A stretch of 64,000 nt of DNA from Patescibacteria group bacterium (GCA_038063515.1 JBBTUY010000006.1:26505-90504), one strand, 5' to 3'. Numbered from the stretch's first letter, positions 22,659 to 38,411 are shown. Program-made: numbers and translations. The notes: generated by a model from the letters alone, not told the origin.

Positions 22659-24068
22659 TTACCTTAGTTTAAGCTCCCAGAGAATTGAATCTTTTTTGTT
22701 TACAAAAAATAAATAGTCTTCGTATGCACTAAGTGAAAGTTTTATACCATCAGTCTCTACCCCACCTAATTCTAATATAGGATCTACAAGCACAGTATTT
22801 TTTACATCTTTAATACCTATTTTCCATATCTGGTCTTCAAATGAAGCCTCTCCTTGATACCATGCATCTGGATATGTTAATCCAGGGATTGATTTAGGTA
22901 CTGCACAATACACATACTCACTTGTCTTGTTCCACACACATTTTTCTGGCAGTGTCCTTACTCCGAGTGCTGTGGAAGCCTTTGTTTCTGTGTTGTAGAC
23001 GTTTAAGGATAGATTGCTATCACTATACAATACAAGCTTGCCTGTGGGGCTCGTGAGTGTGGTGAGTCCATATATATCACCTAAGACTCTAGTGAAGCTC
23101 TTTTTATCTACATCGAGTGCATACATGTATCCAAGAACGATACCAGATGGTTTAGTTGTAAGTGTGACACTTTTACTACTTGGCCAGAAAGACAACCATT
23201 CAGTGAAGCTCGAATCAAATATTTGGCTCTTTTTACTATCTCTTAAATTTAAAATATTACCAACAATAGAATTAGAAACATTTGTTAGATAAAATATTTT
23301 AGATTGATCGGGAGATGGACTTATGTCTTGTATGTTTTCAGTTAAAAATATTCCTTTTGTTTCAATAATTTCTCCATCAGCTCCAAGCTTTTCTTTTGGT
23401 AGCTGTCCTAGGAAAGTCTCTATCGTAACACCGTCCCCTTTTAATCGTCTCATGACTACAGACTCTCCATGGTTTCCAAAATAAGCATCATATATTTTAG
23501 GTATCACAGTACTAGAAAATTTTATCTCTTGTATTTTGTCTATGAAAGTTTGATAAATGTTTCCAGTTGAACGATCCACATATCTAAGTGCTTCCATAAA
23601 TTCTGTTGGCGCAGGTGCTGGAGTTTTATTTATTACTTTTTTTACTTCAGGTTTTACCTCAACTTTTCCCGAGGGTTCACCTTGGGAGGTTGTGGTTGTA
23701 GAAGTTTGATTTTCTGTAGCGGGAGTTAATGGTGTTTCTATGACAGGTATTTCTTTAAATCTTTCTTTCATAAATATAGTAAATCCAGCAATAGGCATAG
23801 ATGAAACTTGTTTTAGTTTGGCCACTATCTCTACTTCATCAGGGTTTTCTTGTAGGTCTCCATTTTCATCTACAAATGGAGGGTTGGCTTCGTCTTTTTT
23901 ATTATCATCACTTCGAAATGGGTTAAATTGTGAGAGAAAATTTATCCCCTCACTTACAGGATTGTTATCCCCTTCTCCATTATCTTTGGCAAAATATGAA
24001 AAGCTAAAAAACGCAAGTACTGCGAGAGTTAAAGTTATTATTAAAATTAAAATACTTTTTTTAAGCAT
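22659..24068 (-). CDS. Secreted/membrane-anchored hypothetical protein (469 aa), last gene of the T4SS-like operon
   Basis: N-terminal hydrophobic signal/anchor (ILILIITLTLAVLAFFSF) and a Thr/Pro-rich linker. No recognised catalytic motif. Confidence 0.5.
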   Translation of the reverse strand: MLKKSILILIITLTLAVLAFFSFSYFAKDNGEGDNNPVSEGINFLSQFNPFRSDDNKKDEANPPFVDENGDLQENPDEVEIVAKLKQVSSMPIAGFTIFMKERFKEIPVIETPLTPATENQTSTTTTSQGEPSGKVEVKPEVKKVINKTPAPAPTEFMEALRYVDRSTGNIYQTFIDKIQEIKFSSTVIPKIYDAYFGNHGESVVMRRLKGDGVTIETFLGQLPKEKLGADGEIIETKGIFLTENIQDISPSPDQSKIFYLTNVSNSIVGNILNLRDSKKSQIFDSSFTEWLSFWPSSKSVTLTTKPSGIVLGYMYALDVDKKSFTRVLGDIYGLTTLTSPTGKLVLYSDSNLSLNVYNTETKASTALGVRTLPEKCVWNKTSEYVYCAVPKSIPGLTYPDAWYQGEASFEDQIWKIGIKDVKNTVLVDPILELGGVETDGIKLSLSAYEDYLFFVNKKDSILWELKLR

Positions 24069-24071
24069 AAA

Positions 24072-25100
24072 TTAAAAATTACATTTACGAGCTGCTCCCC
24101 ATGTCGGATACCATCTTCCTCTTTGTTCTGATAATAATTTTTGTGCAAAAGCTATATTAACTGCAGGGTTGTTCACATAGTTAGCACATCTGAGATATCC
24201 TTCTCTTCCTCCATTAGGTCCATCTGCTCTACAACTCTTATTTCCTGCTGTAAATTTACCTGTAAATACACCCCTACAAGCTGGAATTTCATCAGCATGA
24301 GCTACAATATTTATTTGAAATAATCCTATAGAAGCACTTGACCCATCTGCGCATATGTCTGTTCTACTGGGTTGATTTAAGCCACTACTTTCTCCCTGAC
24401 ACACACAGGATGCTTGGGTAGGATTTGAAAATCCAGCTTCTTGCATTTTTGCTATACTACAATCTCCTTTTGTTGCTGGCTGACCATTAAAATTACCTCT
24501 CCGATTTGCTTCATTTATACGATTTTGTTCATAGTTCGCTTCTTTTCTTATATCAAACTCTTTAATTTCAACTGTTAATGTTGTTTCTTCTATCCCTATA
24601 TCTAAATTAAGTAAATCAGGATTTATTTGATAAAGAATGACCCAAGATCCGAGAGCAAGGAGGAGGCCTAGGATTGCGTGCTGTATTTTCTCTAATCCGT
24701 CCGCTTTATTCCCTGGTAGCTCGCTCGTCATGTATTCCATACCTCCCATCACTATCATAACCACAGCAAGTACAGCACATATTCCTATAAATAATTGCAT
24801 GCCTAGATTGAGATACTTACTGAGTGCATTTGGATCTTCAGGGTCAAAACTTGTGAGTAGTTTACCATCTGTTCCGGGTAGTGGTTGGAGGAATTTGTAA
24901 CTTGTGTCAGTTGGTAGAGGTTTATTAGTTCCTGGTTCAAAATTTTGATTTTTACAAGGTGAATTATTTGGTACTGTAGTGACAAAATTATCAAAAGTAC
25001 AAGGCTCATTAGGATTTGTGGCTGACGCATTTATATCTTTTACAGAAAAAAAGGATCCGACCAGTATTATTATAAAAATGTATGTTAAAATTTTCTTCAT
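24072..25100 (-). CDS. VirB1-like lytic transglycosylase (GH23/SLT-like C-terminal domain) with an N-terminal signal and a hydrophobic hairpin segment
   Basis: 342 aa. The C-terminal CQGESSGLNQ...SIGLFQIN resembles the SLT catalytic Glu-Ser and GLMQ signatures. The central segment LGMQLFIGICAVLAVVMIVMGG..GLLLALGSWVILY is two adjacent TM helices (pilin/VirB2-like topology). Confidence 0.5.
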   Translation of the reverse strand: MKKILTYIFIIILVGSFFSVKDINASATNPNEPCTFDNFVTTVPNNSPCKNQNFEPGTNKPLPTDTSYKFLQPLPGTDGKLLTSFDPEDPNALSKYLNLGMQLFIGICAVLAVVMIVMGGMEYMTSELPGNKADGLEKIQHAILGLLLALGSWVILYQINPDLLNLDIGIEETTLTVEIKEFDIRKEANYEQNRINEANRRGNFNGQPATKGDCSIAKMQEAGFSNPTQASCVCQGESSGLNQPSRTDICADGSSASIGLFQINIVAHADEIPACRGVFTGKFTAGNKSCRADGPNGGREGYLRCANYVNNPAVNIAFAQKLLSEQRGRWYPTWGAARKCNF

Positions 25101-26089
25101 TAAAATTCTACAGTTATTGTTTTATTTGCTGTTTCTAAAATCTGGTATTTGTTTTCTATTTCTAATTTTAATCTAGAGATACCAGACACACCCTCTTCTA
25201 TCTTAAGCGGTATTATATTTTTTCTATATCCTACTATGTCTACTATCTCGTCATTTATATACCAAGTCCAAGCTAGTTGTGGACTATGTATTTGTTTTGG
25301 TGAAATAAAGTACGGCTCTGCTATTATTACTTCGTTGTCTTGTATTTGATGCCTGTCACGTAGAGCTTGCTCCCATAGAGTTCCTAGGAGAGGATCATTT
25401 CTATAAAAAGAAATTTTAGGAGACACCACTCCTATATCCATATTTTTCTTAGTTGAATACAATCCATCCACTGTGGATGCTATAACCTCTATGTTGTCAC
25501 TGTCTTCTAGGTAGTCATTTGTAAATGTGAAAGAATTCTTTCCATAACCAGAACCCTCAGCATCATTGTTGTAGTTTTTTTTCCAAGAGTAAATCATGTT
25601 TTTAGGACTTATGATTCCAGCTTTGTTTTTTATTTCAGGTAATGCTGTTACCTTTATCTCGCTGTCAGCTGTAGGGAGAGCTTTACCACGGTAAAATGGT
25701 GGTACATATGAGTTAGTTGCCTGCCAGAGCATTATCATGGTTAATGGCTTTGCTACTACTACCTTTTCTATTTCACCATCAGGGAGAGATATGACTGCTC
25801 TTATTGTTGTCTCGCTACCATTTACTGGGGTTGTTGTAGAAAAAGTTTTCTGACCTATTTGAGATGATATTTTTTTACCATTTACGTACCATGATATGAG
25901 TGTGCCGTCTAAGCTGGCTACATAGCTACTTACTGTTATAGACACACTTTCCCCAGCCTTAGGATTTTCTGGTGACATGTTTATGGATATAGCTGTGGGC
26001 GATACAGCAAAAGTTTTAACCGGTACTGTGTATACAGCAATAAATAATATAATAAATATATTTGCTACATATGTAAGCTCTCTACGCAT
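25100..26089 (-). CDS. Secreted hypothetical protein (329 aa)
   Basis: N-terminal signal/TM helix and beta-rich composition. It shares a junction base with the downstream gene at 25100. Confidence 0.5.
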   Translation of the reverse strand: MRRELTYVANIFIILFIAVYTVPVKTFAVSPTAISINMSPENPKAGESVSITVSSYVASLDGTLISWYVNGKKISSQIGQKTFSTTTPVNGSETTIRAVISLPDGEIEKVVVAKPLTMIMLWQATNSYVPPFYRGKALPTADSEIKVTALPEIKNKAGIISPKNMIYSWKKNYNNDAEGSGYGKNSFTFTNDYLEDSDNIEVIASTVDGLYSTKKNMDIGVVSPKISFYRNDPLLGTLWEQALRDRHQIQDNEVIIAEPYFISPKQIHSPQLAWTWYINDEIVDIVGYRKNIIPLKIEEGVSGISRLKLEIENKYQILETANKTITVEF

Positions 26090-26114
26090 TTTCTAATTGT
26101 ATAACAAAAAGTGA

Positions 26115-27977
26115 CTAAAGTCTCCCCTCTTTCATGGTTTCCTCGTAGTCTTCTTTTGCTTTTCTGTTTGACAATATTTGAGATGGATCTGATGTGATGA
26201 TCTGGTCTTCGGTGTAAGACGCTACTATTTTTATAGCTACGTGCTTGAGCCCAGCAAAGAATATCCCTTCACCTACCCCTGACTCTAAGAGGAGGTACTT
26301 TTCTTCATCTGTTAGGTTGAATGTCTTCTGGAGTACGTCTATGGTCGTAGGCGACTGTTTTAGGAGTATTTGAATTGAGGAGTTTGTAACTATAGGCACT
26401 CCGTAGGGAGATTTCATAAAGTCTGCAGCGTCTTGAGTAATGGTTGCAAGGCCTAAATAGTATTTTCTTCCTCTTTTAGCAATAGAGTATAAAAATGAAG
26501 CTGTGTCTTCTGATTTCATCATCCACCACGCTTCGTCTACTATGAGCAGACGCTTTTTTAGATTTTTCCTTATAGCATTCCATATATAATGCATGATTAT
26601 ATACATTGCTACTGGTTTTAACTCATCTTCCATGTCACGAATAGAGAAAACGACAAACTTTTTGTTTATGTCTACGTTACTGGGTCTGTTTAAAAATGTT
26701 GACCATGAGCCTTTTGTATATTTTGCGAGCCTAGAAACCACAGAATCACTTCCATCTATTCCAGATAATACCATTTCAAAATCTGAAAGAAGTGGCGGCT
26801 CTATGTTTGCAAAATTTGATTCTGGTGTTATGTCTTTTAATGCATATGTTTCAGATATTGCATGGTCGACTATAGAGTCTTCTTCTGGAGTAAGTCCTCC
26901 TAACATAAGTCTAAAGAGTCCTACTAAGTTTATTATGTTTGACCGGAGTACGTCTTCTGCTGTCTCGTCTTCTCTTGGAATTGGTAGGTCAAAGGGGTTC
27001 ATGTGGTGGTCTGATGATAGAGAAATATTAAAATATCTACCTCCCACAGCTTCTGCGAGGAATTCGTATTCCCTCTCTGGGTCTATGACTATAATGTCTA
27101 TATCAAACATAAGAGATCTTAGTATTTCTAATTTTGTTGCGTAAGATTTACCAGATCCTGATTTTGCAAATGTTACAGAGTTGTAGTTTTCAAGAGAAAA
27201 TCGATCAAAAATAACGAGGCTTGAATTATGTCTGTTTATACCATAAAGTATGCCGTTGTCTGACGTTAAGTCGAAAGAAATAAATGGGAAAACACTAGAG
27301 AGAGGCTCTGAATTTAATTTTTGGTGTATGTTTAGTAAGTCTGTGTTTATGGGGATGACACTTTTAAATCCTTCTTCTTGTTGAAATAATGCTGGTTTTA
27401 TATAGATTAAACGAGACTCTAATATTGATTTGATTTCATTTTCGATCTTAAATAGTTCTAAATCATTGTCTGCATATATGGTAATGTATATTCCCATATC
27501 AAACATTTTCTCTTGAGCTTGAATGAGACTATCACGAAGACCTTCGAGGTCATCGTATGCAGTATCGAGCATTGGATCACGCACCATTCCTTTTGTTTGT
27601 CTCACACTTATCTGACTCTGTACTTCAGCTACCTTTTTTTGAAACTGTCTGAGCACAAGAGAAGTATCTATTGGATGAATAAATATTGAAATATCAAATA
27701 CTTTGTCTAGGTTTATGATCGGAGAGAACCAGTTGTCAGTAAGGTATCTAGGGTATGAGATTATGAAAAACGTACGAGCTATCTTCTCTCCTAAGTTTAT
27801 AGCTTTAGGTTCTATTTTAAGTGCTGATGGAGCTATGATGTCTTGTAACTCTAAGCTCGCTGCTTCATATATCTGCTCAGGCAGGATATTTAAAGTAGAG
27901 ACTTCTGTCTCTTTCACCATTTGTTTATCTGGAGCTAGCGGTGTTTTTTTAGCGAATAATTTTTTAAAAATTTCCAT
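26115..27977 (-). CDS. VirB4/TrbE/CagE-family type IV secretion ATPase (main body, 620 aa)
   Basis: Walker A is FAKSGSGKSYATK and Walker B is KRLLIVDEAWWMM. The upstream conserved VirB4 segment is IARTFFIISYPRYLTDNWFSPII. It begins 4 nt after the stop of the 27982..28620 ORF, in a different frame. Confidence 0.8.
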   Translation of the reverse strand: MEIFKKLFAKKTPLAPDKQMVKETEVSTLNILPEQIYEAASLELQDIIAPSALKIEPKAINLGEKIARTFFIISYPRYLTDNWFSPIINLDKVFDISIFIHPIDTSLVLRQFQKKVAEVQSQISVRQTKGMVRDPMLDTAYDDLEGLRDSLIQAQEKMFDMGIYITIYADNDLELFKIENEIKSILESRLIYIKPALFQQEEGFKSVIPINTDLLNIHQKLNSEPLSSVFPFISFDLTSDNGILYGINRHNSSLVIFDRFSLENYNSVTFAKSGSGKSYATKLEILRSLMFDIDIIVIDPEREYEFLAEAVGGRYFNISLSSDHHMNPFDLPIPREDETAEDVLRSNIINLVGLFRLMLGGLTPEEDSIVDHAISETYALKDITPESNFANIEPPLLSDFEMVLSGIDGSDSVVSRLAKYTKGSWSTFLNRPSNVDINKKFVVFSIRDMEDELKPVAMYIIMHYIWNAIRKNLKKRLLIVDEAWWMMKSEDTASFLYSIAKRGRKYYLGLATITQDAADFMKSPYGVPIVTNSSIQILLKQSPTTIDVLQKTFNLTDEEKYLLLESGVGEGIFFAGLKHVAIKIVASYTEDQIITSDPSQILSNRKAKEDYEETMKEGRL

Positions 27978-27981
27978 ATAT

Positions 27982-28620
27982 TTATTCTAATTTAATCTTC
28001 CCTTCTACTTCCCCTGGATTAAAGACTTTGTAGAATACCTCTATCACTTCTTCGGTGCCCAAAAGAGCTGATTTTATACCACAACGGCTAAGACCCTGCT
28101 GTATGACACCCACTCTCTGTTCTAGCTGTGACTTCTTTTCTTCGAAGTCTTCCTGTTTCCTCAGTAGTTTTTCTTCTTTACTCTTTCTCTTAAATATTCT
28201 ATCTAGTATACCTTCATCTGATTTTAAAACATTATGAGAATACGGGACTATAATAAAGAAGCTTTTAGTCATTATGTTTACAGATTCTGTAAAATTCATA
28301 ATAAAATTTATGTATTCTTTGGTCTGCAGTTTAAGTAATGGTTCACTCTGTACTTTCATTCTATTTTCTAAAAGTAAAATGTATGGCCTTATGTCTAGTT
28401 TCCTTGATTGTACTGATATTTGAATAGTAAAATCTAAAGTGTTTAGGAAATTTTGAAATTGAAATATTGTAGCTTTTTGCTCATCTGAAGATTTTAGCGA
28501 AAGGTTCACTGAGTTTGCAAGGACTATGGCTCGCAAGCCACCGTCTTTTAGCACAATGATTCCATCGCGTACTTCTTTTATGGGTACAAATTCTTGTGTT
28601 GCTTTAGCTTTTAATGCCAT
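27982..28620 (-). CDS. VirB4 N-terminal-domain-like protein (212 aa), apparently the detached N-terminal part of the ATPase
   Basis: FVPIKEVRDGIIVLKDGGLRAIVLANSVNLSLKSSDEQKATIFQFQNFL matches the pattern at the extreme N-terminus of VirB4/TraE-type ATPases. Together 212+620 = 832 aa, the usual VirB4 size. Confidence 0.45.
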   Translation of the reverse strand: MALKAKATQEFVPIKEVRDGIIVLKDGGLRAIVLANSVNLSLKSSDEQKATIFQFQNFLNTLDFTIQISVQSRKLDIRPYILLLENRMKVQSEPLLKLQTKEYINFIMNFTESVNIMTKSFFIIVPYSHNVLKSDEGILDRIFKRKSKEEKLLRKQEDFEEKKSQLEQRVGVIQQGLSRCGIKSALLGTEEVIEVFYKVFNPGEVEGKIKLE

Positions 28621-28660
28621 TTATATATTGTATACTATTTTTACCTAAAAATTCTTAAAC

Positions 28661-29095
28661 TTACTTGTTTATTTCGTGTTTACTTAAATCAAGTACGTCC
28701 AAACTCCATGCAAGGTCTCTAAGCTTACTTTTGTTTAATCGTGGATTGCTTACCGACAGTGCCACCTCCTTCTCTTTTTTTGCAGCCTCAATCGTTTTAT
28801 TTGGATTTACTTTATTTTGGCGTCTTTTCCAAATATACAATTTACTTTGTAGTCCATATCTGAGCCCTGCTTCAAGCATTTCTATAAATGGCTTGTTGTT
28901 TGGCTTATAGAATGTGAGCGTCAGAGAAAATCCAGCTACGGCAAGCATAGGCACTAACCCTAAAAGTAAGCCTAGTAATTCGTAAATTACAAAACACATT
29001 CCCGCCCCGCCTGCTAGATATATAAATTCTTTAAAGGTAAATGGACCAAAAATTTTGTCTTCTACTTCTAAAAATTGTGGTACTTTGAATTGCAT
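28661..29095 (-). CDS. Small two-TM membrane protein, VirB3/TcpE-like by size, topology and position upstream of VirB4
   Basis: 144 aa with the hydrophobic hairpin FIYLAGGAGMCFVIYELLGLLLGLVPMLAVAGFSLTLTFY. Assignment is by context only. Confidence 0.35.
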   Translation of the reverse strand: MQFKVPQFLEVEDKIFGPFTFKEFIYLAGGAGMCFVIYELLGLLLGLVPMLAVAGFSLTLTFYKPNNKPFIEMLEAGLRYGLQSKLYIWKRRQNKVNPNKTIEAAKKEKEVALSVSNPRLNKSKLRDLAWSLDVLDLSKHEINK

Positions 29096-29124
29096 ATTGT
29101 TTTATTTATGGTGAGCTTACTCTG

Positions 29125-29892
29125 CTATTCGTCCGGTGAGAGACGATACGGATCCCCTTTGGGCGGATAGGACACTCTTACTTCTTCTTTGTTTTGTCCG
29201 CTTACCTTACTCTCTTTCTTTGTTTCAGTTGTTCCTATTGTGTATTCTGTTTTTGTTGTGGGATTTTGTACTGATGTTGCTATCTTTTCTTTGATTAATG
29301 GGTGAATACCTCCACTTACTGTATTTAAATTATTATTTATAGGTGTTGGCTCTGGATTCTCTACCATTTTTAAGGTGTCCTCTCTTTCCTCATTAGTAGC
29401 TTTTTTTATTTTTATTCCTTCTTCTACGTCTGGTTCTATTCTCGGATTGATTTTTATACCTGTTGATTCTAGTATGTCGTTATCAACTTTTTTTATTTCT
29501 TGTTCTATTTCAATACTTTGCTCTGGTTTCGGCTCAGCTTTTTTAGTAAAACTATTTTTTCTTTCTGTGATTTGAATCATCTCCTCTTTTATCTTTTTAA
29601 AGATAGACTCATTTAGTTCATGTGTTAATTCTTGTGCAGATGCTTCAGATATATGCATTTTTTCCGCTATTGTCTTGGTGTACTCGTGTGGATTTAATAG
29701 TCCACAGAGTAATAATTCTGTTTCTAATTCTAAGTCCCCGAGTTGTTCAAAATCATACCCTTTTGTTTCACGTAATTTTAAAAGGGCAGCCCTCCAGTCT
29801 ACTTGCGCAATAGCATTTAGGGTGTCTTCGGGCAATTTTGCTTTTGCCTGTTCTATTTTTATTTGTAGTGATGCGGGTATGTTGTTTTGCAT
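29125..29892 (-). CDS. Hypothetical protein (255 aa, hydrophilic, no TM)
   Basis: Operon member with no recognisable motif. Confidence 0.4.
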   Translation of the reverse strand: MQNNIPASLQIKIEQAKAKLPEDTLNAIAQVDWRAALLKLRETKGYDFEQLGDLELETELLLCGLLNPHEYTKTIAEKMHISEASAQELTHELNESIFKKIKEEMIQITERKNSFTKKAEPKPEQSIEIEQEIKKVDNDILESTGIKINPRIEPDVEEGIKIKKATNEEREDTLKMVENPEPTPINNNLNTVSGGIHPLIKEKIATSVQNPTTKTEYTIGTTETKKESKVSGQNKEEVRVSYPPKGDPYRLSPDE

Positions 29893-29901
29893 TTATGTAT
29901 T

Positions 29902-30429
29902 TTATTCCTCTTTATCATTATATAGGAATTTACTTTTTATGTCTTTGATTTTGGAATCATTTTCTACTACATACCCACCTATTTTTTGATTATTTTTAGG
30001 GTGAGTAGGTTCTTCCCTGTCACTTGGTGTAAGAAATGATGCGTAGTCTCCACCAGAGAGAATAAAATTCATATCCTTCTCTAATTTCTTTGAGGGGTCG
30101 GAGCTTACGGCATGATTCATGATATCTAAGAGTTCTTTAAAACTAGAGAATATTTCTCTATGTATTTCTTCTACTATATTAGATGCCTTTAGGTGATCAA
30201 TTTTTAATTCTTGGGTAAGCGAAGACTCGAAGTTTTTTAAAGGTGCGAGCCCCATCATTATAAGTGTGGTCTCTTTCCCTAAAATATCTATGCCTTCTTG
30301 ATCTAGCTCGTTTTTCATACCTATACTTGCTAGGGCCTCCTCGTAGTGAGGTGACATAATTTCCTCCTGAATAGTTTGGGGGAGAGCATAAAATTTTTCT
30401 TGTATTATTTTTATTGTATCGTTATCCAT
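29902..30429 (-). CDS. Hypothetical protein (175 aa)
   Basis: Operon member with no recognisable motif. Confidence 0.4.
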   Translation of the reverse strand: MDNDTIKIIQEKFYALPQTIQEEIMSPHYEEALASIGMKNELDQEGIDILGKETTLIMMGLAPLKNFESSLTQELKIDHLKASNIVEEIHREIFSSFKELLDIMNHAVSSDPSKKLEKDMNFILSGGDYASFLTPSDREEPTHPKNNQKIGGYVVENDSKIKDIKSKFLYNDKEE

Positions 30430-30446
30430 ATTTTTAGCTAAATTAA

Positions 30447-32846
30447 TTAATGGTGTGCTGCGTGACTGTCATGAGCTGGTGCGGAACTAGTAGTAGGTGT
30501 TGTATGTGTTGCAGCAGCTGGTACGGGGTGTGCTGGTGCAGCCGGGTGTGCAGCATCGTGTGGGTTAAGTATGTGTCCTAAGTGTTCGAGCACCTCATCT
30601 TTTTCAGATTCAATTTTAGCTCCACCTACTTTTGCAACAAATTCTCTGTTTTGTACACTTATACCCTCTCTAAAGGCATGTATAAATCCTCCCAGTGCTG
30701 GTGCTACTATCATCCCTACTCCTCCTGTTACAGCTCCTGCTGCTAAAGTTCCTATTTGACCCATCGGTGATGTAAGGGTCTTTCCTACTCCCATTTTATA
30801 ATTATCCCAGAAATTTTTCATTGCTTTTTCTACCTTAATAGCTCCACTATCTGTGTCTTTTATTGAGTTACTTAAACTATTTAGGTATGCAGCCTTGCGT
30901 CTTTTATTTACTTCTTCAGCTGTCTCTACTTTTATAAGTTTTTTACCTAGACCTTTAAAGTTTAACCCATACTCTTTGAGATCTACACCATTTTCATAAT
31001 CAGCTTTAAATTTCTTTTCATCAAACTCAAGACCCTTTCCTGCAACAAACTTCCTTGCGTTTTCTAGATTTTCCTCATATTTTTTATATATTTCATTTTG
31101 CGCCTTTCCTTGTTCAGAGGATGCAAAGTTGTCTTGATCCTTTGCGTTGGCACCACTTAATTCATGAGTCTTCATTCTATCCTGTGCTTTTTTCGCATCT
31201 CGTTTCTCTTTTGCTTTATATCCACCCTTAAGACTTGCACTATCTAATCCGAGAATAGTACCTCCTTTGGCAAAATCTAACCCACCCTTACTTTTAAGAA
31301 GTTTACCGAGTCCTGTATCTCTAGGATCGAAACTCTTACTAGCTATCGAGTTTGCAAAATCAAGTTTTCTTTGTGCCCATCTATCACCTGACGCAGCTTT
31401 ATCCTGGAGTTCTCTGTTGTTCGCTGTTGACATTGCTGCTGCCCCTATGGTGCTTCTTAGTGCAACACTTGTGCCACCTGATGCTACTCCGACTGCAAGG
31501 CCTCCTACTGCAGCTGCAAGTGTCGCTCCTCCTGATATGACTGCTTTACTAAATTCTCCACTACCCTTCTTTGCATAGTCTACAGCCTTTAAGAGAAGGC
31601 TTATGTTTATAATTGCAGGAAGTATTGTAAGTAATAATAATCCAGCAAATGCTTCCAAGCCTTTATTTTGTGTAAATGTATTCCCTATATTTTTAAATAT
31701 ATCTATTTGAATAATTTTAGATATTATAAGCATAAAGAACATGAAAATAGGAGCCATGAATGCTACGGAAAATAGTCGGCTAGACCATGAATCCCATCCT
31801 ATATAATCCATTTTCTTTAATTCTGGCATTGCAAAAGACATAAATGCAAAAGGTGCAAAAATTATAAGTATCCAGAATTCTATAAGTCTACCAAGAAAAG
31901 CAAATGCAGCTATAAAAAATGCGTAAGATGCTATCAAGAATATAGCTCCAGCAGTAAATATAAGTAGTAAGGTTATAGATGTTGGCACACCTACGCTGTT
32001 ACCAAATACTGCTTGTTGTACAACACCACCCACTGCTGCTCCACCCGGTATTGGAGTCATTGCACCTATAATAGCACCCGTAAGCCAGCTTGCGCCTTGT
32101 GTTTCTTTAAATTTATCTAGATTGATAAAATTGTTTGGGTTAAAGCCGGATACTATTCCCCCAGCAAAATTCTTTTCTTCCACCCCAGTCTTTTCTGTGT
32201 TTGTAATTGGTTCTGATTTAGTTACTACCTCACCATTTTTTGTGACCACTGTTATTTTATTGTAGAAGACAAGCGCAAGTACGTTTGAAGAATCTATAAC
32301 TACTTGCGTGAAAAACATACTGAAGTTTATAAATAGTGCTACTATTATAACTTCTGATATTACTTTCTTAACTTCCGATCCTCCTAATCCAAGTATGGTT
32401 TTAAATGCTACATGTAAGAGTATTATTATAAAAAATATATTAGAGATATCTCTAACTATCTTCCATGCTTCAGAAAGGAAGTCGTTATCAAATAGGAGAC
32501 TGCTTAATGTTATTGCCAAGCTTGCATTGAAAAGTTGTGCCACCAGCCACAATATCCCTGAAGGTAATACGTAAAATAGAGTGTAAATTATTCTAGTTAA
32601 ACATTTATCAGGAGATCCATCAAAAAAGTTTGCACATCCAATGCTTTCGTCGAGGCTGGTCTTTGTGTCTTTTGTACTACCATCTGGAGTTGGTGATGAT
32701 GCAGCACCAGTTGGTGTGGTTGTTGTAGGAGGTAGTGGCGACGTTTCAGTTTCTGGTGAGCCTTGTGCTTGTACATTAAAAACTGGACTAAAAAATCCTG
32801 AGGTAAATGCAGTTATTAATATTAAAGTTAAAAACCTTTTTTTCAT
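30447..32846 (-). CDS. Polytopic membrane protein with a long hydrophilic C-terminal extension (VirB6/TrbL/TcpH-like architecture), 799 aa
   Basis: Signal peptide, Thr/Pro-rich linker and at least 6 strongly hydrophobic helices (e.g. ITLLLIFTAGAIFLIASYAFFIAAFAFLG, FWILIIFAPFAFMSFAM, FMAPIFMFFMLIISKII). A roughly 330-aa charged C-terminal tail ends in a His/Ala/Pro-rich segment. Confidence 0.4.
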   Translation of the reverse strand: MKKRFLTLILITAFTSGFFSPVFNVQAQGSPETETSPLPPTTTTPTGAASSPTPDGSTKDTKTSLDESIGCANFFDGSPDKCLTRIIYTLFYVLPSGILWLVAQLFNASLAITLSSLLFDNDFLSEAWKIVRDISNIFFIIILLHVAFKTILGLGGSEVKKVISEVIIVALFINFSMFFTQVVIDSSNVLALVFYNKITVVTKNGEVVTKSEPITNTEKTGVEEKNFAGGIVSGFNPNNFINLDKFKETQGASWLTGAIIGAMTPIPGGAAVGGVVQQAVFGNSVGVPTSITLLLIFTAGAIFLIASYAFFIAAFAFLGRLIEFWILIIFAPFAFMSFAMPELKKMDYIGWDSWSSRLFSVAFMAPIFMFFMLIISKIIQIDIFKNIGNTFTQNKGLEAFAGLLLLTILPAIINISLLLKAVDYAKKGSGEFSKAVISGGATLAAAVGGLAVGVASGGTSVALRSTIGAAAMSTANNRELQDKAASGDRWAQRKLDFANSIASKSFDPRDTGLGKLLKSKGGLDFAKGGTILGLDSASLKGGYKAKEKRDAKKAQDRMKTHELSGANAKDQDNFASSEQGKAQNEIYKKYEENLENARKFVAGKGLEFDEKKFKADYENGVDLKEYGLNFKGLGKKLIKVETAEEVNKRRKAAYLNSLSNSIKDTDSGAIKVEKAMKNFWDNYKMGVGKTLTSPMGQIGTLAAGAVTGGVGMIVAPALGGFIHAFREGISVQNREFVAKVGGAKIESEKDEVLEHLGHILNPHDAAHPAAPAHPVPAAATHTTPTTSSAPAHDSHAAHH

Positions 32847-32858
32847 TTTATTAATTTT

Positions 32859-35060
32859 CTAACTCGGTGTCCATTTATTGTTTTTTTCTATACCTAAACA
32901 TTCATCTTTAGTTAATCCTGGTATTTTAAGCACACCTATTTGGCAGATGCCACGTGTTTCTGTCGGTGTTGTTGTTGGATTTACAGTCGTGCTGTATGGT
33001 GAAGGTGTGTCTGATATTTTGTAGTCTCCTGAGCTACTGTTATATATAGCGTTACAATTTATATTGTTATTACCATAAGATGTGCAGAATACAGTTTTTT
33101 CTGTTTGGATGTTATTAAATAGACTATTCTCTCCTCCTGGGTTGGTCCATGTTTTAGCTGTTCTTTCATTCGAACACTTTATTATTAGGGTATTTTGGTA
33201 ATTCACTTTATCTTTTAAATCATCTACTACGTTTTGTGCTTCCCTAACTGTTTCATTTGTAGAAAGCTCTAATATCATTCCATTGATTCTCTCTTTTAGT
33301 CTTACCATTGTTTTTTCATTTTCAGATCCTGGTGCTGGTTGTGTTGTTATTGCACTTAAACTTCCTCTTATTGATTCTAGTTTTACTAAAGTTTGAGTTA
33401 GTGTATCTTTTCTAGCTACTAATTCGTTTACTTTTTCACTTGTGGTTTTAGTAGAAGATACTTCACTCAAGTAGCTCGGTGAACTCGGTAATTCACTTCT
33501 CATTTTATTTTTCACCCACTCTTTAAAAGAGTTGGCTGTGGCAGTGATACTGTCATTGTAGGCAGTATCTGTTGTGAATTTGCTCTGTATGTCATTGTCA
33601 AGCCTATCTTCCCATCCAACATTTGGTCCAGGTAGGCACATGTCGAGTTCTTGTGTTTTTTGTAACACTCGATCAAATAATTGTGACAATCCAAGGTTGT
33701 TTACATCAGTATTGTCTATTAATTTTAGTTCTGTATTGGCTCTAGTTATCGCATCATTTACATCTTTTTTGAAAGTAGTTAAGATTATTTCCTCATCTGG
33801 TCCTCCCCAGTTAAAGCCGGTACCACTTGTAGTATTCACTGATGGGCTACCGAGTGTATGTCCGTAGTAACTAAAATTGTCGTCATCAGTATTGTTTCCA
33901 TTACCACTTATTTTACTTGAAAGTGCGTTTAATCCATCCTTCATAAATTTATTTAAGAGCGCATCAAATATCGCAGAGAGACTGTTGCCCATAGCAGCAG
34001 CGAGTGAGGTCTGGTCGTATGGTCCAGTGATCGCTTTCATGATTTGTGCACTGACTACTGAGCCTGGAGTAGTATTTACAAGTCCACCTGGGCAACCATT
34101 TTCTGATTCCCAATTTATTCTTTCATTATCATTTTTTATACTCCATTGCAGTTTTTGTTCATCGTATGTATCATAAATTGAATTATATCTTGTATTCCAT
34201 TCGTCATTTGATTCATCTGGTCTCCTTGTCGGTACTTCAGGTTCAGTTGGTTCAGGAGTAGACGACTTAAATGTAGGCTGGTTAAATTGGTTTTTTAGAT
34301 TATTATATCGTGGGTTACTTGGACATGTCTGTGGAGACAAGAAGCCCATACCTTGTTGTAGTGTGTCTTTTACAATATCAGCTTGGTTTTGACCTGTACC
34401 TCGGAGTCTTTTTGCTAGCTCATCTTCGTACATCATCTGGAATCCAAGAGAATTGTTTTGAGGGTATTGAGTATTTAAAAGGAATCCATTCCATCCTCCA
34501 ACACTAAAGTTGTTTCTATATCTAGAAAGAAGCTGTGGATCTCTCGTCACTTGGCTTAAGCTATATTGTGCGTTCGTAGCAAACTGTTTTTTGTAGCTTT
34601 CTATTGTGTTTATGGCTGTTGACTTACCAAATGGGTATTTATTACTGTCATAACCTATGATGTTTACTAGTTTTTTGATCTCGTATTTTCCTATGTCTTT
34701 AAAAAATGCTCCTGGGCGCTCTAGGAAAAGTGGTGCTCCATGAAAGCCGGAGTTTATCCAGTTTATGGTGGCTTGAGTCATCTGTTGTAAGAGTCTGCGT
34801 GCAAAGGTACGTAGTGTTTCGCGTAATACTTCTTTAGCCCATTCTTTTATATTAATGCTTGCAGTTGTAGCACTACTAACTGATGTTGCACCAGTAAAAA
34901 ACTTAGTAAGCCATGATACTGGGGCTGTGTCGTTAACTATAGTTGCTGGAAATACTGCCTCTGTTTTTTTAGGTGTAGAAAATATAAAAATAGGTGTTAT
35001 TATTGCAATAATAACTAAGAAAGAAATTATTTTTTGATTTATTTTGTTTTTAAAATTCAT
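32859..35060 (-). CDS. Large secreted/anchored hypothetical protein (733 aa)
   Basis: N-terminal TM/signal (IISFLVIIAIITPIFIFS). Ser/Thr/Asn-rich with a Cys-containing C-terminus. No recognised domain. Confidence 0.45.
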   Translation of the reverse strand: MNFKNKINQKIISFLVIIAIITPIFIFSTPKKTEAVFPATIVNDTAPVSWLTKFFTGATSVSSATTASINIKEWAKEVLRETLRTFARRLLQQMTQATINWINSGFHGAPLFLERPGAFFKDIGKYEIKKLVNIIGYDSNKYPFGKSTAINTIESYKKQFATNAQYSLSQVTRDPQLLSRYRNNFSVGGWNGFLLNTQYPQNNSLGFQMMYEDELAKRLRGTGQNQADIVKDTLQQGMGFLSPQTCPSNPRYNNLKNQFNQPTFKSSTPEPTEPEVPTRRPDESNDEWNTRYNSIYDTYDEQKLQWSIKNDNERINWESENGCPGGLVNTTPGSVVSAQIMKAITGPYDQTSLAAAMGNSLSAIFDALLNKFMKDGLNALSSKISGNGNNTDDDNFSYYGHTLGSPSVNTTSGTGFNWGGPDEEIILTTFKKDVNDAITRANTELKLIDNTDVNNLGLSQLFDRVLQKTQELDMCLPGPNVGWEDRLDNDIQSKFTTDTAYNDSITATANSFKEWVKNKMRSELPSSPSYLSEVSSTKTTSEKVNELVARKDTLTQTLVKLESIRGSLSAITTQPAPGSENEKTMVRLKERINGMILELSTNETVREAQNVVDDLKDKVNYQNTLIIKCSNERTAKTWTNPGGENSLFNNIQTEKTVFCTSYGNNNINCNAIYNSSSGDYKISDTPSPYSTTVNPTTTPTETRGICQIGVLKIPGLTKDECLGIEKNNKWTPS

Positions 35061-35072
35061 TTTTAAAAATTT

Positions 35073-35978
35073 CTAATTACTTAATTTTTTATTTATAAGT
35101 GTTGACAACTTTTCAATGCTTACTTGTACACTTTCTGAATTTTTACTATATTGGCTTATACCACTTAATGCTACTACGATATCAGTATCATACAATCTAA
35201 TGTCGCTAATGTTTTCTGAGAGTTTCTGCATTATGTTTACAACTTCTAAATGTGAGGTAGAGAGACTCTCTGGGACACCAATACTTATTATATTTATAAT
35301 AATGTTATTTACTTGTTTTATCAGAGGATCAAGTTCTTTTAGTATAGTTACATCTACGTTTTCTTCGTCAATTACGAATTTTTGCAATACATCTAGTACT
35401 GTGTATTTTATAGGTTCTTTACTAAAAATTTTATTTAAATCGTCGTTATAATTTTTAATACTTTGGCTATTTTCCGCCTTTATTATTTTTAAGTCATTTA
35501 TTGTATAAGTCTTTCTCTGCACAGAATTTTGTACTTTTTCTGCGAGATTGCCTGCGAGTGTCTCTACTGTATTTTCATCTATCTCTCCTACTTGGTTTAA
35601 GGCTGCTATGGAGGAAAAGAGTTCTCGGGAGAGCTTGTCTGTCTCTGTTAGATTTTGCTCTTCAGTTTCATTTAGGTTTAGTTCACCAGTCGATGATATG
35701 CCTTTTCTGTCTCGTATCGTGACTTTGTCTGGCACACCTGCTACTGTCTCAGCTTTTGTCGGATCTGTGCCATACAGCCCTTCTTCCCAATCTGAGATAG
35801 TATCATTATCTGTGTCTTTGTTCACTAAATCTTCTAAAGTTTCTGTACCACTGTATACTAGGCCACTTTTTTCTATTTGATTTTTGAAAATTAAATTATT
35901 CTTTGAGAGAAAAAGTGCAAGTAGAAAAAGCACCACGAGGATGATTAAAATTATTTTCTTTTGTTTCAACCAATACAT
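35073..35978 (-). CDS. N-terminally membrane-anchored hypothetical protein (301 aa), first gene of the operon (possibly VirB8/TcpC-like by topology only)
   Basis: Single N-terminal TM (KIILIILVVLFLLALFL) followed by an acidic extracytoplasmic domain. Confidence 0.4.
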   Translation of the reverse strand: MYWLKQKKIILIILVVLFLLALFLSKNNLIFKNQIEKSGLVYSGTETLEDLVNKDTDNDTISDWEEGLYGTDPTKAETVAGVPDKVTIRDRKGISSTGELNLNETEEQNLTETDKLSRELFSSIAALNQVGEIDENTVETLAGNLAEKVQNSVQRKTYTINDLKIIKAENSQSIKNYNDDLNKIFSKEPIKYTVLDVLQKFVIDEENVDVTILKELDPLIKQVNNIIINIISIGVPESLSTSHLEVVNIMQKLSENISDIRLYDTDIVVALSGISQYSKNSESVQVSIEKLSTLINKKLSN

Positions 35979-36024: not shown

Positions 36025-36861
36025 TTATGTGAGTAAACTAAGGGTAATCCAGTCTTTTGGAGATAGATTTTCTGCCCTTTTATCTTTGAGATCTTCGAAA
36101 GATGAATTTTTAGATAAATTCATGCTTTTTAGGTTGCCACTGAGCTTCTTTCTTTTGTGTGCAAAGCCTAATTTTACTAATTTCCAGAAATCTTCTTCAC
36201 TTATTTTGTTTTCATAAAAAATTCTCTTAGAAATATTTTTTATGACTATCACAGATGAGTCTACTTTGGGTTGTGGGGAGAAATATCGCGCGCCCACCTT
36301 GGCCACTATTTTAGGCTCCCCGTATGCCTTTACTGATATAGAGAGCAGGCTTTCCTTTTTGTCACGGGCAACTATTCTCTGTGCTACTTCTTGCTGTACG
36401 AGGAGGACCATAGATGTCGGCTGTGTATCACCTCCTAAAAATTTCTTTAGTATTGCGCCCGTTATATTGTAGGGAATGTTTGCAATTATTTTGTAACGAA
36501 ATTTTTTCGAAGTTTTTTTCAGGTCCTCGGACCCCTCCGTCCCTATCCCAGCCAGACCATGTAAAAAACTTGAAAAAATTTCATTCACGTTAAGTTCTAG
36601 TATATCTTCTTCAATTAAAATTAATTTTTCGTCTTTAATTTCTTTTTCAAATTTTATTTTAAGTAGTTCAAAAAGGTCATGATCTTTTTCTATGGCTATG
36701 ACTTTCCCTGCTTTTTCTAAAAGTTTACTAGTGAGGGCACCTTTACCTGGACCTATCTCTAATATCAAATTATCAGGATCTATCTCTCCTGCTTTGATGA
36801 TTTTATCTAAAATAAGATTTGATTTTAAAAAATTTTGCCCCAATGATTTTTTAGCTTTCAT
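36025..36861 (-). CDS. rsmA: 16S rRNA (adenine1518/1519-N6)-dimethyltransferase RsmA/KsgA
   Basis: 278 aa with KSLGQNFL, SAM motif ILEIGPGKGALT and NIPYNI. It contains an in-frame GC-rich palindromic insertion at 36499-36581. Confidence 0.85.
   Translation of the reverse strand: MKAKKSLGQNFLKSNLILDKIIKAGEIDPDNLILEIGPGKGALTSKLLEKAGKVIAIEKDHDLFELLKIKFEKEIKDEKLILIEEDILELNVNEIFSSFLHGLAGIGTEGSEDLKKTSKKFRYKIIANIPYNITGAILKKFLGGDTQPTSMVLLVQQEVAQRIVARDKKESLLSISVKAYGEPKIVAKVGARYFSPQPKVDSSVIVIKNISKRIFYENKISEEDFWKLVKLGFAHKRKKLSGNLKSMNLSKNSSFEDLKDKRAENLSPKDWITLSLLT
36499..36581 (+). repeat. GC-rich palindromic mini-element (copy K3), in-frame inside rsmA
   Basis: The core caggtcctcggacccctccgtccctatcccagccagaccatg is flanked by the inverted arms aaattttttcgaagttttttt / aaaaaacttgaaaaaattt. 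It encodes ..FLHGLAGIGTEGSEDLKK.., similar to the peptide encoded by the uvrA copy. Confidence 0.8.
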
Positions 36862-38411
36862 GTTTTTGAGTTTTTTAATATTTTATTTATCTCTTTTGTA
36901 TTAAATGGGAAATAGTATTTGACTATAGGCTCTAAGAGCTTTTCTGTTGGAGCAAAGTTGTTTGTTAGAATTGTGTATCTAGAATTATTAAGGGGTTCAT
37001 TTTTCACTAATTTTTTAGCCAAAAAGCTTTTATCCAAAAGTAATTTTTCATATAGTTTTTTTTCACTCATTGGTAATTTACCTTTTATTCCGACTAATAT
37101 TATATTTTGTATATTTTCGGTGTTATCTCCCATAGCAAAAACATAAGAGCTTGGAAAACTCAGCTGAAAGGTTTTTAAGGTACTTTTTATAAATTCTGAC
37201 TTATTGCCAGAAAGTGAGCCTATTAAGTTTATAGCATAAATACCATCATTATTTAGTTTTTGTTTTATCTCATCATTCCACTCTTTTGTTAAGAGATACC
37301 ATGGTACTGAGATAAATGAAGTGTATGCGTCGCTAAAAATAACATCATATTTTTGTGGGCTTTTTTTTAATACAATTTTAGCATCACCGATGGTTGTCTC
37401 AATATTGTATTTTTTTAAATCAAAAAAATTATTACCAATGTTTACAACTTCTGGATCGAGCTCTGCCACCAGTACTTTACTTTTCGGGTAATATTTTACA
37501 AGGTGTTTTGGTATGATATATGCACCAGCCCCTATAACTAGAATGTCATTTATCTCTTTTTTTAGATATGAAAATAACGGGTATGTGTCAGTATATATTT
37601 CTGTAGGTGCTTGAAATTCATAACTTTGAGCAGAAAAATCAAGTAATAATACTCTCGAGCTTCCATATGTTGAAGAATACGTATCTACTACTTTCGCATT
37701 ATAGTAATTAGTTTCTTTATTAAATAAAACTTCTCTGTGTTCTGTGACTTTTTCTGCTGTATAAATAAGCCCGATTATCATGATTCCCGCTCCTATAAAT
37801 GTAAAAAGTATTTTTTTATTTCTAATTCCATATACTAAGCCTAATATAAACAGAAGTCCTGCCATAAACCAAACTGTCTCTTTTGTTCCGAGGTAAGATA
37901 CAAAAAAGAATCCAGTTAAAAAAACTCCTAGTATACCTCCCAGAGACCATGTAAAAGATAGTATTCCATAATGGCTACCAATTTTTGTAAAATCATCTGC
38001 AAATTTTTTTAGAATAATAGGTTGTATCATCCCTATAGAAAGTGTCGGTAGTAAAAATAAATATAATGCGAGTGATAGGTTGAGTTTCATTATTGAATTT
38101 ATTGAATTTAAAATAAAATTAGTGTGTTCCGCAAGTAAGGGTATGATTACCACAAAAAATCCAGAAGCAAGGAATGTCAAAGGTAGTACATTACTATATT
38201 TTTTGTCAGCTACAATCCCACCTAAGAAATTTCCACCTGCAAGACCTAAGAGTGTGACACCTATAACTGATGTCCAGGTAAATACTGAACCACCTATGAG
38301 TGGTGCCATTATTCTATTTGAAATGAGTTCAATAGTCATAACTACAAAGCCTGCTATAAATGAACTTATTGCGTAGAGTATTTTTTTATTTGATATATTT
38401 TCTATTTTCAT
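36858..38411 (-). CDS. Spermidine/spermine synthase-like protein fused to an N-terminal polytopic membrane domain
   Basis: 517 aa with roughly 7 N-terminal TM helices. The C-terminal aminopropyltransferase/SAM-MTase-like fold has VLVIGAGAYIIPKHL, VAELDPEVV and YDVIFSDAY. Confidence 0.6.
   Translation of the reverse strand: MKIENISNKKILYAISSFIAGFVVMTIELISNRIMAPLIGGSVFTWTSVIGVTLLGLAGGNFLGGIVADKKYSNVLPLTFLASGFFVVIIPLLAEHTNFILNSINSIMKLNLSLALYLFLLPTLSIGMIQPIILKKFADDFTKIGSHYGILSFTWSLGGILGVFLTGFFFVSYLGTKETVWFMAGLLFILGLVYGIRNKKILFTFIGAGIMIIGLIYTAEKVTEHREVLFNKETNYYNAKVVDTYSSTYGSSRVLLLDFSAQSYEFQAPTEIYTDTYPLFSYLKKEINDILVIGAGAYIIPKHLVKYYPKSKVLVAELDPEVVNIGNNFFDLKKYNIETTIGDAKIVLKKSPQKYDVIFSDAYTSFISVPWYLLTKEWNDEIKQKLNNDGIYAINLIGSLSGNKSEFIKSTLKTFQLSFPSSYVFAMGDNTENIQNIILVGIKGKLPMSEKKLYEKLLLDKSFLAKKLVKNEPLNNSRYTILTNNFAPTEKLLEPIVKYYFPFNTKEINKILKNSKT

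Follow-up and report, generated by a model that had tools for sequence, protein, structure and literature searches.

A block of eleven genes on the minus strand of a 64,000-nucleotide stretch of DNA from a Patescibacteria group bacterium (GCA_038063515.1, JBBTUY010000006.1:26505-90504; the whole stretch is hereafter called the window) almost certainly encodes a patescibacterial type IV secretion system (T4SS). The explanation that we favor overall, and to which we assign a probability of roughly 80%, is that of an apparatus derived from MPF-FATA systems, fixed in the chromosome and serving epibiotic interaction with a host rather than conjugation. This kind of system is already known and was described between 2023 and 2025, including its position by dnaA, rnpA, and ksgA; the initial annotation of the window, which had proposed a minimal T4SS-like apparatus, was right in substance and does not constitute a discovery. 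To the known system, our study adds that the sole pilin-like protein in the window appears to carry cell-wall-cutting domains, which differ even between close relatives.

Components of the apparatus and its two-piece motor

Between positions 22659 and 35978, eleven open reading frames (ORFs), all on the minus strand, encode proteins of 469, 342, 329, 620, 212, 144, 255, 175, 799, 733, and 301 aa, in the order of their coordinates (Table 1). Neighboring genes are separated by -1 to 40 bp, two of them having base 25100 in common, so that the coordinates, the spacing, and the shared base of the eleven co-oriented and tightly packed genes were all found as annotated. The ORFs are real genes rather than chance ORFs, because same-order orthologues of each of them occur in 33 to 80 of the 80 related loci that we obtained by scanning one genome per GTDB species, ~45 of these loci having full 10-kb flanks.

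As had been annotated, the 620-aa protein is a VirB4-family ATPase, with a Walker A motif GSGKSY at residues 274 to 279 (window 27141-27158) and a Walker B motif LLIVDEAWW at residues 477 to 485 (window 26523-26549). It matches Pfam P-loop_TraG (8e-26), AAA_10, and DUF87, exceeds the cut-off of NCBIfam conju_CD1110 (365.9 bits versus 325, covering profile positions 180 to 733 of 752), and, among PDB sequences, matches the VirB4 C-terminal domain of Thermoanaerobacter (4ag5, 1e-38) and TrwK of R388 (3.5e-7). The usual N-terminal domain is missing from this polypeptide. The adjacent 212-aa protein, which has 62 invariant columns and no transmembrane segment, matches NCBIfam VirB4_plasma, the mycoplasma VirB4 model for integrative and conjugative elements (ICEs), over profile positions 101 to 238 (4e-9), conju_CD1110 over positions 2 to 136 (9e-5), and TrsD (NF041427) over positions 14 to 200 of 201 (E 2e-5, below the family cut-off). 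The 212-aa and 620-aa proteins thus match complementary parts of the VirB4 profiles, and, because the former covers profile positions that the ATPase lacks, VirB4 appears to be encoded here as two pieces, a TrsD-like N-domain and an ATPase, which together would represent a full-length VirB4. Alignment of the two with hhalign gave no similarity, as expected for complementary pieces that are not paralogues. The TrsD-like domain is a component that the initial annotation had not recognized; across the phylum, no other T4SS component is found near virB4 as often as TrsD (PMC12102498).

The 144-aa protein passes the Pfam threshold for PrgI (4.8e-8, 33.9 bits versus a cut-off of 27), matches TcpE weakly, and has a hydrophobic hairpin at approximately residues 22 to 62. 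The annotated VirB3-like identity therefore stands, but not the placement of this gene directly upstream of virB4, since the gene of the 212-aa protein intervenes and PrgI lies two genes upstream. For the 799-aa polytopic protein with a long C-terminal tail, two methods both ranked VirB6 first among the natural fold matches, consistent with the VirB6/TcpH-like assignment made earlier. Pfam scans of 31 orthologues each gave no VirB6 signal for the 799-aa family and no VirB8 signal for the 301-aa family, and profile searches against PDB sequences with the 212-, 799-, 301-, 469-, 733-, and 329-aa families returned nothing usable. Altogether, the CD1110-type VirB4, a PrgI/VirB3 protein above threshold, and a VirB6 fold match support the Gram-positive-type component set that had been proposed, and published work concurs (PMC10633639, PMC12102498).

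The 255-aa and 175-aa proteins have no transmembrane segment, and no Pfam family scored above threshold for the 255-aa protein. Comparison of their orthologue alignments with hhalign paired residues 1 to 105 of the former with residues 1 to 101 of the latter (probability 99.9%, E 8e-33). This relationship is visible only by profile-profile alignment, BLASTP of the 175-aa against the 255-aa protein being not significant. In some relatives, one single ORF matches both proteins.

The remaining proteins are predicted to be secreted or anchored at the surface. The 301-aa protein had been put forward as VirB8/TcpC-like, to be checked for an NTF2-like fold; its fold is a four-helix bundle instead, and we rejected it as VirB8. 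The 329-aa protein, which has one N-terminal hydrophobic segment, is probably built of Ig-like domains, as suggested by sub-threshold matches to Pfam PKD_3, Ig_3, and TcaA in the protein itself and in some orthologues. In the 469-aa protein, present in 70 of the 80 loci, 24 columns are invariant, 2 Cys and 5 Trp among them; this protein gave no Pfam, NCBIfam, or PDB sequence match. No family or PDB match was obtained for the 733-aa protein either, which is syntenic in 43 loci.

Table 1. Features of the T4SS block and of genes used for comparison, with window coordinates and median amino-acid identities to the window proteins across the 80 loci
Feature	Coordinates	Strand	Median identity	Basis or remark
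N-terminally anchored protein, 469 aa, Thr/Pro-rich linker and conserved ~300-aa C-terminal domain	22659..24068	-	43%
Pilin protein, 342 aa: signal peptide, variable ectodomain, VirB2-like pilin core, C-terminal lysozyme-like domain	24072..25100	-	41%
Lysozyme-like C-terminal ectodomain of the 342-aa protein (ES...D...GLFQI)	24075..24488	-
Pilin core of the 342-aa protein, residues 96-163, two transmembrane helices	24612..24815	-		68-residue gap-free block, 58 orthologues
N-terminally anchored surface protein, 329 aa, probably Ig-like domains	25100..26089	-	35%	Sub-threshold Pfam matches
VirB4-family ATPase, 620 aa, without the usual N-terminal domain	26115..27977	-	85%	Pfam, NCBIfam, and PDB profile matches
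TrsD-like protein, 212 aa, putative VirB4 N-terminal domain as a separate polypeptide	27982..28620	-	73%	NCBIfam matches
VirB3/PrgI-like small membrane protein, 144 aa	28661..29095	-	57%	Pfam PrgI PF12666
Cytoplasmic acidic protein, 255 aa	29125..29892	-	28%	N-terminal ~100 aa paralogous to the 175-aa protein
Cytoplasmic acidic protein, 175 aa	29902..30429	-		Paralogue of the 255-aa protein
Extended VirB6-like polytopic membrane protein, 799 aa, long helical C-terminal tail	30447..32846	-	32%
Secreted/anchored Cys-containing protein, 733 aa	32859..35060	-	31%	N-terminal hydrophobic segment, 8 Cys
N-terminally anchored protein, 301 aa, TSP3-type calcium-binding repeat, then four-helix bundle	35073..35978	-	30%
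dnaN	17795-18892		67%	Flank of block
dnaA	19116-20462		79%	Flank of block; dnaA and dnaN 2-5 kb off
yidC			64%	Comparison
rsmA			54%	Comparison

A pilin core joined to exchangeable cell wall enzymes

The 342-aa protein consists, in this order, of a Sec-type signal peptide, a Cys-containing ectodomain of ~70 aa, a pilin core, and a C-terminal domain of ~180 aa. Pfam T4SS_pilin (PF18895) recognizes it at 1.3e-6 (28.8 bits versus a cut-off of 26.6) and SLT_3 weakly, at 0.028. In the C-terminal domain, GESSG is found at residue 236 and GLFQI at residue 259; the Glu, the Asp, and the G-L-x-Q motif are invariant in 5 orthologues, and the sole PDB profile matches of the domain are the lysozymes 4pj2_C and 3ab6_A (E 0.07), in alignments that span the catalytic motif. 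The protein had been annotated from its ES..GLFQI motif as lytic-transglycosylase-like (VirB1-like); the motif is present and a lysozyme-like domain weakly confirmed, but the VirB2-like pilin core in the same polypeptide had gone unnoticed. Within the window, we found no other copy of the pilin core and no free short pilin. The pilin domain also matches, weakly (1e-4), the NCBIfam mycoplasma ICE family Mbov_0395 pilin-like, and both VirB4 and the TrsD-like protein match the mycoplasma ICE VirB4 model; this hints that the VirB2-like subunit may have been present already within MPF-FATA systems rather than borrowed from diderm systems.

Across 58 syntenic orthologues, the 68-residue core is free of gaps, while 53 to 499 residues precede it and 156 to 280 follow it. 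T4SS_pilin was recognized in 56 of the 58 and TrbC/VirB2 in 17 of those. The enzyme domains assigned by Pfam in the 58 orthologues are diverse, comprising NlpC/P60 (10), VanY (8), YkuD (5), Amidase_5 (4), Peptidase_M15_4 (3), SLT (3), SLT_2 (2), and CHAP (2), together with 3D, ELLD, and SLT_3 and occasional Ig-type or carbohydrate-binding modules (TIG, Big_1, Filamin, CBM_10). Matches to NlpC/P60, VanY, M15_4, YkuD, and SLT are clear, down to 1e-18, and the enzyme domain lies C-terminal of the pilin core in all ten representatives with mapped domain coordinates.

All-against-all BLAST divides the C-terminal regions into 17 unrelated clusters; for 3 of the ten multi-member clusters (11, 3, and 2 members), the representative has no Pfam assignment. 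Exchange of these regions is seen at short distance, given that, among genome pairs with VirB4 proteins 92 to 95% identical, only 27% have C-terminal regions from one cluster. For three pairs of this kind, the pilin core is 73 to 90% identical, both flanking ectodomains ~20 to 30%, and the neighboring genes 47 to 67%. These alignments show cassette-like replacement on either side of a conserved pilin core. An exhaustive search of 1.84 billion representative proteins returned 11,111 relatives of the 342-aa protein at E <= 1e-3. Among the best 150 of these relatives, 65 match over the pilin part alone and have more than 110 further residues C-terminal of the match, and Pfam recognizes VanY (10), M15_4 (9), NlpC/P60 (7), SLT_2 (7), YkuD (3), Extensin-like_C (3), and Amidase_5 (1). 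Neither the pilin-hydrolase fusion nor module swapping was found in PMC12102498, in PMC10633639, or in full-text searches, which covered few subscription-journal papers, so that this absence is not proof of novelty.

The pilin domain may also be read more narrowly. It could be a two-helix membrane anchor for a VirB1-type hydrolase in a system that makes no pilus, which we hold to be possible though short of probable. The single core copy, always fused to large ectodomains on both sides, and the lack of a free short pilin in the window are in favor of an anchor, and Gram-positive VirB1 analogues are typically membrane-anchored (also discussed in PMC12102498), as in the N-terminal transmembrane segments of PrgK, TraG, and CwlT. 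However, PF18895/TrbC genuinely matches the core in nearly all orthologues, its conservation goes far beyond what an anchor would need, being gap-free and highly identical where the flanks are unrelated, and tubular structures, possibly T4SS pili, have been reported in a cultivated relative (bioRxiv 10.64898/2026.06.21.733656). Conversely, a more ambitious proposal, tentative and rather doubtful in its entirety, is that the Paceibacteria VirB2-like subunit would be a modular carrier of exchangeable ectodomains on the 68-residue pilin core, from which the T4SS would build an enzyme-decorated filament or stalk cutting the host wall, and that enzyme swapping would track the wall chemistry of the host and set the host range. 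In such a carrier, the N-terminal end may hold adhesin-like Ig, TIG, or CBM modules and the C-terminal end an endopeptidase, a carboxypeptidase, an L,D-transpeptidase-fold enzyme, a muramidase, or an amidase.

Chromosomal setting and relation to known systems

The ~45 fully flanked loci share one order, namely, uvrD, rsmA, the genes of the 301-, 733-, 799-, 175-, and 255-aa proteins, PrgI, the 212-aa protein, VirB4, the 329-aa protein, the pilin, and the 469-aa protein, beyond which come jag, yidC, and rnpA, encoded on the other strand, and finally dnaA and dnaN. All 80 loci belong to Patescibacteria, most being labeled Nomurabacteria or Paceibacterota. The 799- and 301-aa proteins have 100% identical counterparts in a metagenome-assembled genome labeled Patescibacteria group bacterium. 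The best 120 VirB4 homologues are 86 to 92% identical, and every named source among them is a Nomurabacteria, Paceibacteria, or other Patescibacteria group. The median identities (Table 1) indicate that VirB4 is under strong purifying selection, with a constraint above that on the replication initiator DnaA, while fast evolution is seen in the membrane and surface components as well as in the small paralogous pair of the cytoplasm. A highly conserved motor, fast-changing other parts, and a syntenic block together rule out a recently acquired mobile element.

One flank of the block thus consists of jag (R3H domain), yidC, rnpA, dnaA, and dnaN and the other of rsmA and uvrD, in line with the annotated position between jag and rsmA in the conserved chromosome core, and the G+C content of the block (0.34 to 0.38) is the same as that of the remaining window. 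Close co-directional packing continues beyond 35978 up to 45423, through rsmA, a spermidine-synthase-like gene, uvrD, a DUF5663 gene, and two unknown genes, with successive gaps of 46, -4, 6, 109, 21, and 12 bp. Because of this continuation, the eleven-gene operon of the initial annotation is a functional delimitation and not a mapped transcription unit: the eleven packed genes are there, but the packing does not end with them. A promoter/terminator consensus scan found 62 promoter-like sites versus 65.5 expected from shuffled sequence, hence no enrichment that would mark the operon ends.

The locus is in all likelihood a member of the Patescibacteria T4SS clade surveyed recently. Among 3,035 genomes, VirB4 was found in 2,417, and one monophyletic clade within MPF-FATA comprises most of these VirB4 proteins (Quinonero-Coronel 2025, PMC12102498). 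The components associated with them are TrsD, PrgI/VirB3, VirB6, rarely VirB8, VirB1-like hydrolases (with virB4 especially in Paceibacteria), and PF18895 pilins, and the virB4 neighborhood in Paceibacteria and Microgenomatia is rich in dnaA, dnaN, rnpA, ksgA, and rpmH (PMC12102498). Our locus shares with this clade VirB4 and an adjacent TrsD, PrgI/VirB3, the candidate VirB6-like protein, the PF18895 pilin, the VirB1-like hydrolase, the lack of a nearby relaxase or type IV coupling protein (T4CP), and the dnaA/dnaN/rnpA/ksgA (rsmA)/rpmH surroundings, with no essential difference. VirB2 and VirB1 are handled in that survey as separate components, most VirB2-bearing genomes being without VirB1, and a single polypeptide uniting pilin and hydrolase is not mentioned (PMC12102498).

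The closest functional evidence comes from the Saccharibacterium Southlakia epibionticum, whose T4SS cluster SEML1_0006-0019 is essential for epibiotic growth by transposon sequencing, its pilins included (Wang 2023, PMC10633639). That cluster resembles Gram-positive conjugative T4SSs, has no recognizable coupling protein or relaxase, and is tabulated in a comparable order as VirB4, a neighboring hypothetical protein, PrgI, VirB6-like giants, lysozymes, and an Ig-like exported protein (PMC10633639). Both clusters are close to dnaA on the minus strand, run from the VirB6-like protein through PrgI, the TrsD-like protein, and VirB4 to surface proteins, a lysozyme, and an Ig-like exported protein, and lack a relaxase and a coupling protein. 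In contrast, Southlakia has six separate small pilins where one fused pilin is found here, as well as a separate protein that carries three lysozyme domains, a pair of VirB6-like giants, and the NTF2-like SEML1_0012, whereas the present locus has the two cytoplasmic paralogues (255 and 175 aa) and the four-helix-bundle protein of 301 aa.

With the MPF-FATA systems themselves (the CD1110 subclass of CTn2, Trs/Tra of pGO1/pIP501, and Prg of pCF10), the locus has in common the CD1110-type VirB4, TrsD (pGO1 subclass), PrgI, a putative VirB6-like channel protein, a membrane-anchored peptidoglycan hydrolase, and the lack of outer-membrane components. The apparatus probably descends from this monoderm conjugation machinery and is now fixed in the chromosome core close to dnaA. 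It differs from MPF-FATA systems in having no relaxase, T4CP, origin of transfer (oriT), or identified VirB8-like protein, in being chromosome-fixed and vertically conserved, and in its VirB2-like domain, which has been reported absent from MPF-FATA (PMC12102498), although the weak Mbov_0395 match hints otherwise. Precedents for a nonconjugative T4SS are the coupling-protein-free Ptl of Bordetella and VirB of Brucella and the bacteria-killing Xanthomonas-type T4SSs, including the delivery of peptidoglycan hydrolases to other bacteria (PMC12857230, PMC6536674). All of these are VirB1-11 systems of diderms and secrete soluble effectors as separate proteins, whereas here the enzyme lies covalently within a pilin-like subunit.

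Beyond the block, the window is ordinary chromosome, with polA, uvrB, ruvB, ruvC, tyrS, a class A penicillin-binding protein, a PilB-type ATPase, an Xer-like recombinase, a CCA-adding enzyme, tRNAs, and PNPase. The gene at 36858-38411, which overlaps rsmA by 4 bp, encodes a spermidine-synthase-like methyltransferase domain preceded by an N-terminal region with ~7 predicted transmembrane segments. The DUF5663 protein (40630-40935) gave no significant BLASTP match to the 255-aa protein. Upstream of uvrD, an unknown 869-aa protein (40957-43566) contains a segment of ~80 aa (residues ~476 to 560) that recurs in 15 related loci, where it lies close to the C-terminal end of large proteins whose genes sit immediately upstream of that for the VirB6-like protein; by this recurring segment, the 869-aa and 614-aa genes may be connected with the secretion apparatus. 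A further peptidoglycan hydrolase, a LysM and M23 peptidase protein (57246-58337), is encoded away from the T4SS block. Besides the T4SS, cultivated Patescibacteria have type IV pili as their other surface machine that is essential. The window encodes a stand-alone PilB/GspE-type ATPase (9372-11069, T2SSE and MshEN domains) with no other obvious pilus genes adjoining; this sole T2SSE-family ATPase of the window was rejected as VirB11, since it is 565 aa long and has the MshEN domain of the PilB/GspE type. Between 62000 and 64000, the G+C content falls to 0.26 versus ~0.35 in the remaining window.

Three tandem DnaA-box-like 9-mers, one perfect and two with one mismatch, spaced by 10 to 12 bp, are found at 55367-55397 between a tRNA gene and the UPF0102 gene, at the minimum of the cumulative GC skew (~55 kb); upstream of dnaA (20518-20537), there is merely a pair of DnaA boxes. 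The replication origin may thus lie ~35 kb away from dnaA, in which case transcription of the T4SS block on the minus strand would run in the direction of the replication fork.

A proposed role at the interface with the host

For the favored explanation, we propose that the VirB6-like 799-aa and VirB3/PrgI proteins would form a membrane platform, at which the two-piece VirB4 motor (the 212-aa TrsD-like protein and the 620-aa ATPase) would extract the VirB2-like subunit from the membrane or assemble it. In VirB2/TraA pilins, both termini lie outside the cell, and therefore the enzyme domains would face the cell wall or the exterior. Variable modules would then be displayed on both extracellular ends of the VirB2-like subunit, the C-terminal peptidoglycan-active module (lysozyme-like here) opening a path through the wall of the cell itself, as VirB1 does, and probably also through that of the host. 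The bitopic 301-, 733-, 329-, and 469-aa proteins would make up the extracellular, host-contacting part, and the paralogous acidic 255- and 175-aa proteins could be adaptors in the cytoplasm in place of a cluster-encoded coupling protein. The apparatus would thus move macromolecules across the epibiont-host interface and would not conjugate; a transport role at this interface seems to us rather more plausible than otherwise. The rapid swapping of unrelated enzyme families recalls phage endolysins and interbacterial effectors, whose adaptation is to foreign walls, and argues that at least part of the enzyme target may be a foreign wall, that of the host. A 2026 preprint on a cultivated patescibacterium describes the uptake of host RNA and also tubular structures, perhaps T4SS pili, by which the host seems to be penetrated (bioRxiv 10.64898/2026.06.21.733656).

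Several points weigh against this explanation. The function is transferred from a Saccharibacterium with a differing cluster, in which six pilin genes are separate and lysozymes stand alone, and essentiality in an obligate epibiont would fit a host-interaction role and a housekeeping role in the envelope alike. A pilin bearing an enzyme domain of ~180 aa might be unable to polymerize. No VirB8-like component (NTF2; PrgL/TraM/TcpC) was identified in the block, the 301-aa candidate having failed and the 469-, 733-, and 329-aa proteins not having been modeled. Finally, a coupling protein or relaxase could be encoded elsewhere in the genome, VirD4 homologues being common in Patescibacteria genomes but far from virB4 (PMC12102498).

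Import rather than export could be the task of the apparatus, with ComB-like or Ced-like uptake of DNA, or of RNA or nucleotides, from the environment or the host. Such a role would agree with the lack of a relaxase or T4CP, with the inability of these organisms to make nucleotides, with the host RNA uptake and tubular structures, possibly T4SS pili, of the 2026 preprint (bioRxiv 10.64898/2026.06.21.733656), and with the PNPase encoded at 58749-60866. Together with a short adenylate-kinase-like ORF (62191-62580), this PNPase makes up the two enzymes proposed in that preprint for turning host RNA into nucleoside triphosphates. We nevertheless consider import unlikely. In Southlakia, a comEC deletion abolishes competence yet is viable while the T4SS is essential (as summarized in PMC12857230), so that the essential role of the T4SS there is not ComEC-dependent DNA uptake; moreover, ComB systems are diderm VirB2-10 sets and no VirB7, VirB9, or VirB10 family is found here. 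Both observations weaken the ComB-like DNA uptake that the initial annotation had suggested. In addition, no nucleic-acid-binding component was identified in the block, and import via a patescibacterial T4SS is not known from any species.

A housekeeping machine of the envelope, remodeling the cell's own wall, displaying surface proteins, or acting in division with no transfer between cells, would account for the extreme conservation of VirB4 and TrsD, with VirB4 above DnaA, for the location among core replication and ribosome-biogenesis genes, and for a membrane-anchored peptidoglycan enzyme as an integral part, and the essentiality in Southlakia is equally compatible with it. This reading is quite improbable in our view, since unrelated families of peptidoglycan enzymes are swapped between loci whose VirB4 proteins are 92 to 95% identical, which would be hard to explain with an own, slowly changing wall, and since all extracellular components diverge fast (~30 to 43% identity).

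Among the window ORFs of at least 100 aa (64 kb scanned, apart from short ORFs nested in annotated genes), no relaxase, VirD4/TcpA, or VirB11 family was detected, as the initial annotation had stated. The lack of a relaxase or coupling protein nearby and the conserved position in the chromosome core make the system probably nonconjugative; the annotated view that the block sits on no obvious mobile element, and hence does not serve conjugation, agrees with the 64 kb free of ICE modules, the synteny in ~45 species, and the unchanged G+C content. An ordinary conjugative element, ICE or integrated plasmid, with relaxase, coupling protein, and integrase just outside the block, is suggested by the conjugative family of VirB4 (CD1110 of CTn2) and by a tyrosine recombinase gene at 47221-48138, but can practically be dismissed, because that recombinase is XerC/D-like (SAM_1 domain) and lies 11 kb off behind rsmA, uvrD, and other genes, no relaxase/VirD4 family occurs in the 64 kb, the order of the block and of its flanks (dnaA, dnaN, rnpA, yidC, jag, rsmA) is kept in ~45 species, G+C equals that of the surroundings, VirB4 is more conserved than DnaA, and relaxases occur in only 103 of 3,035 genomes, rarely near virB4 (PMC12102498). 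As a candidate ICE integrase, the recombinase was rejected for being Xer-like and distant, with housekeeping genes between.

The patescibacterial T4SS has been called the first T4SS essential for the survival of its own carrier bacterium (PMC12857230), and it is a leading candidate for the means by which these ultrasmall epibionts, which account for much of bacterial diversity, draw on their hosts. The locus described here adds no new kind of system. It offers a clean and compact Paceibacteria example, with an apparently split VirB4, a VirB8 slot unfilled by the obvious candidate, and a pilin and a putative wall-cutting enzyme as one protein, with an enzyme module that is swapped between close relatives. 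If it is true that the swapped module acts on host walls, the host specificity of thousands of uncultured genomes would become accessible from sequence.

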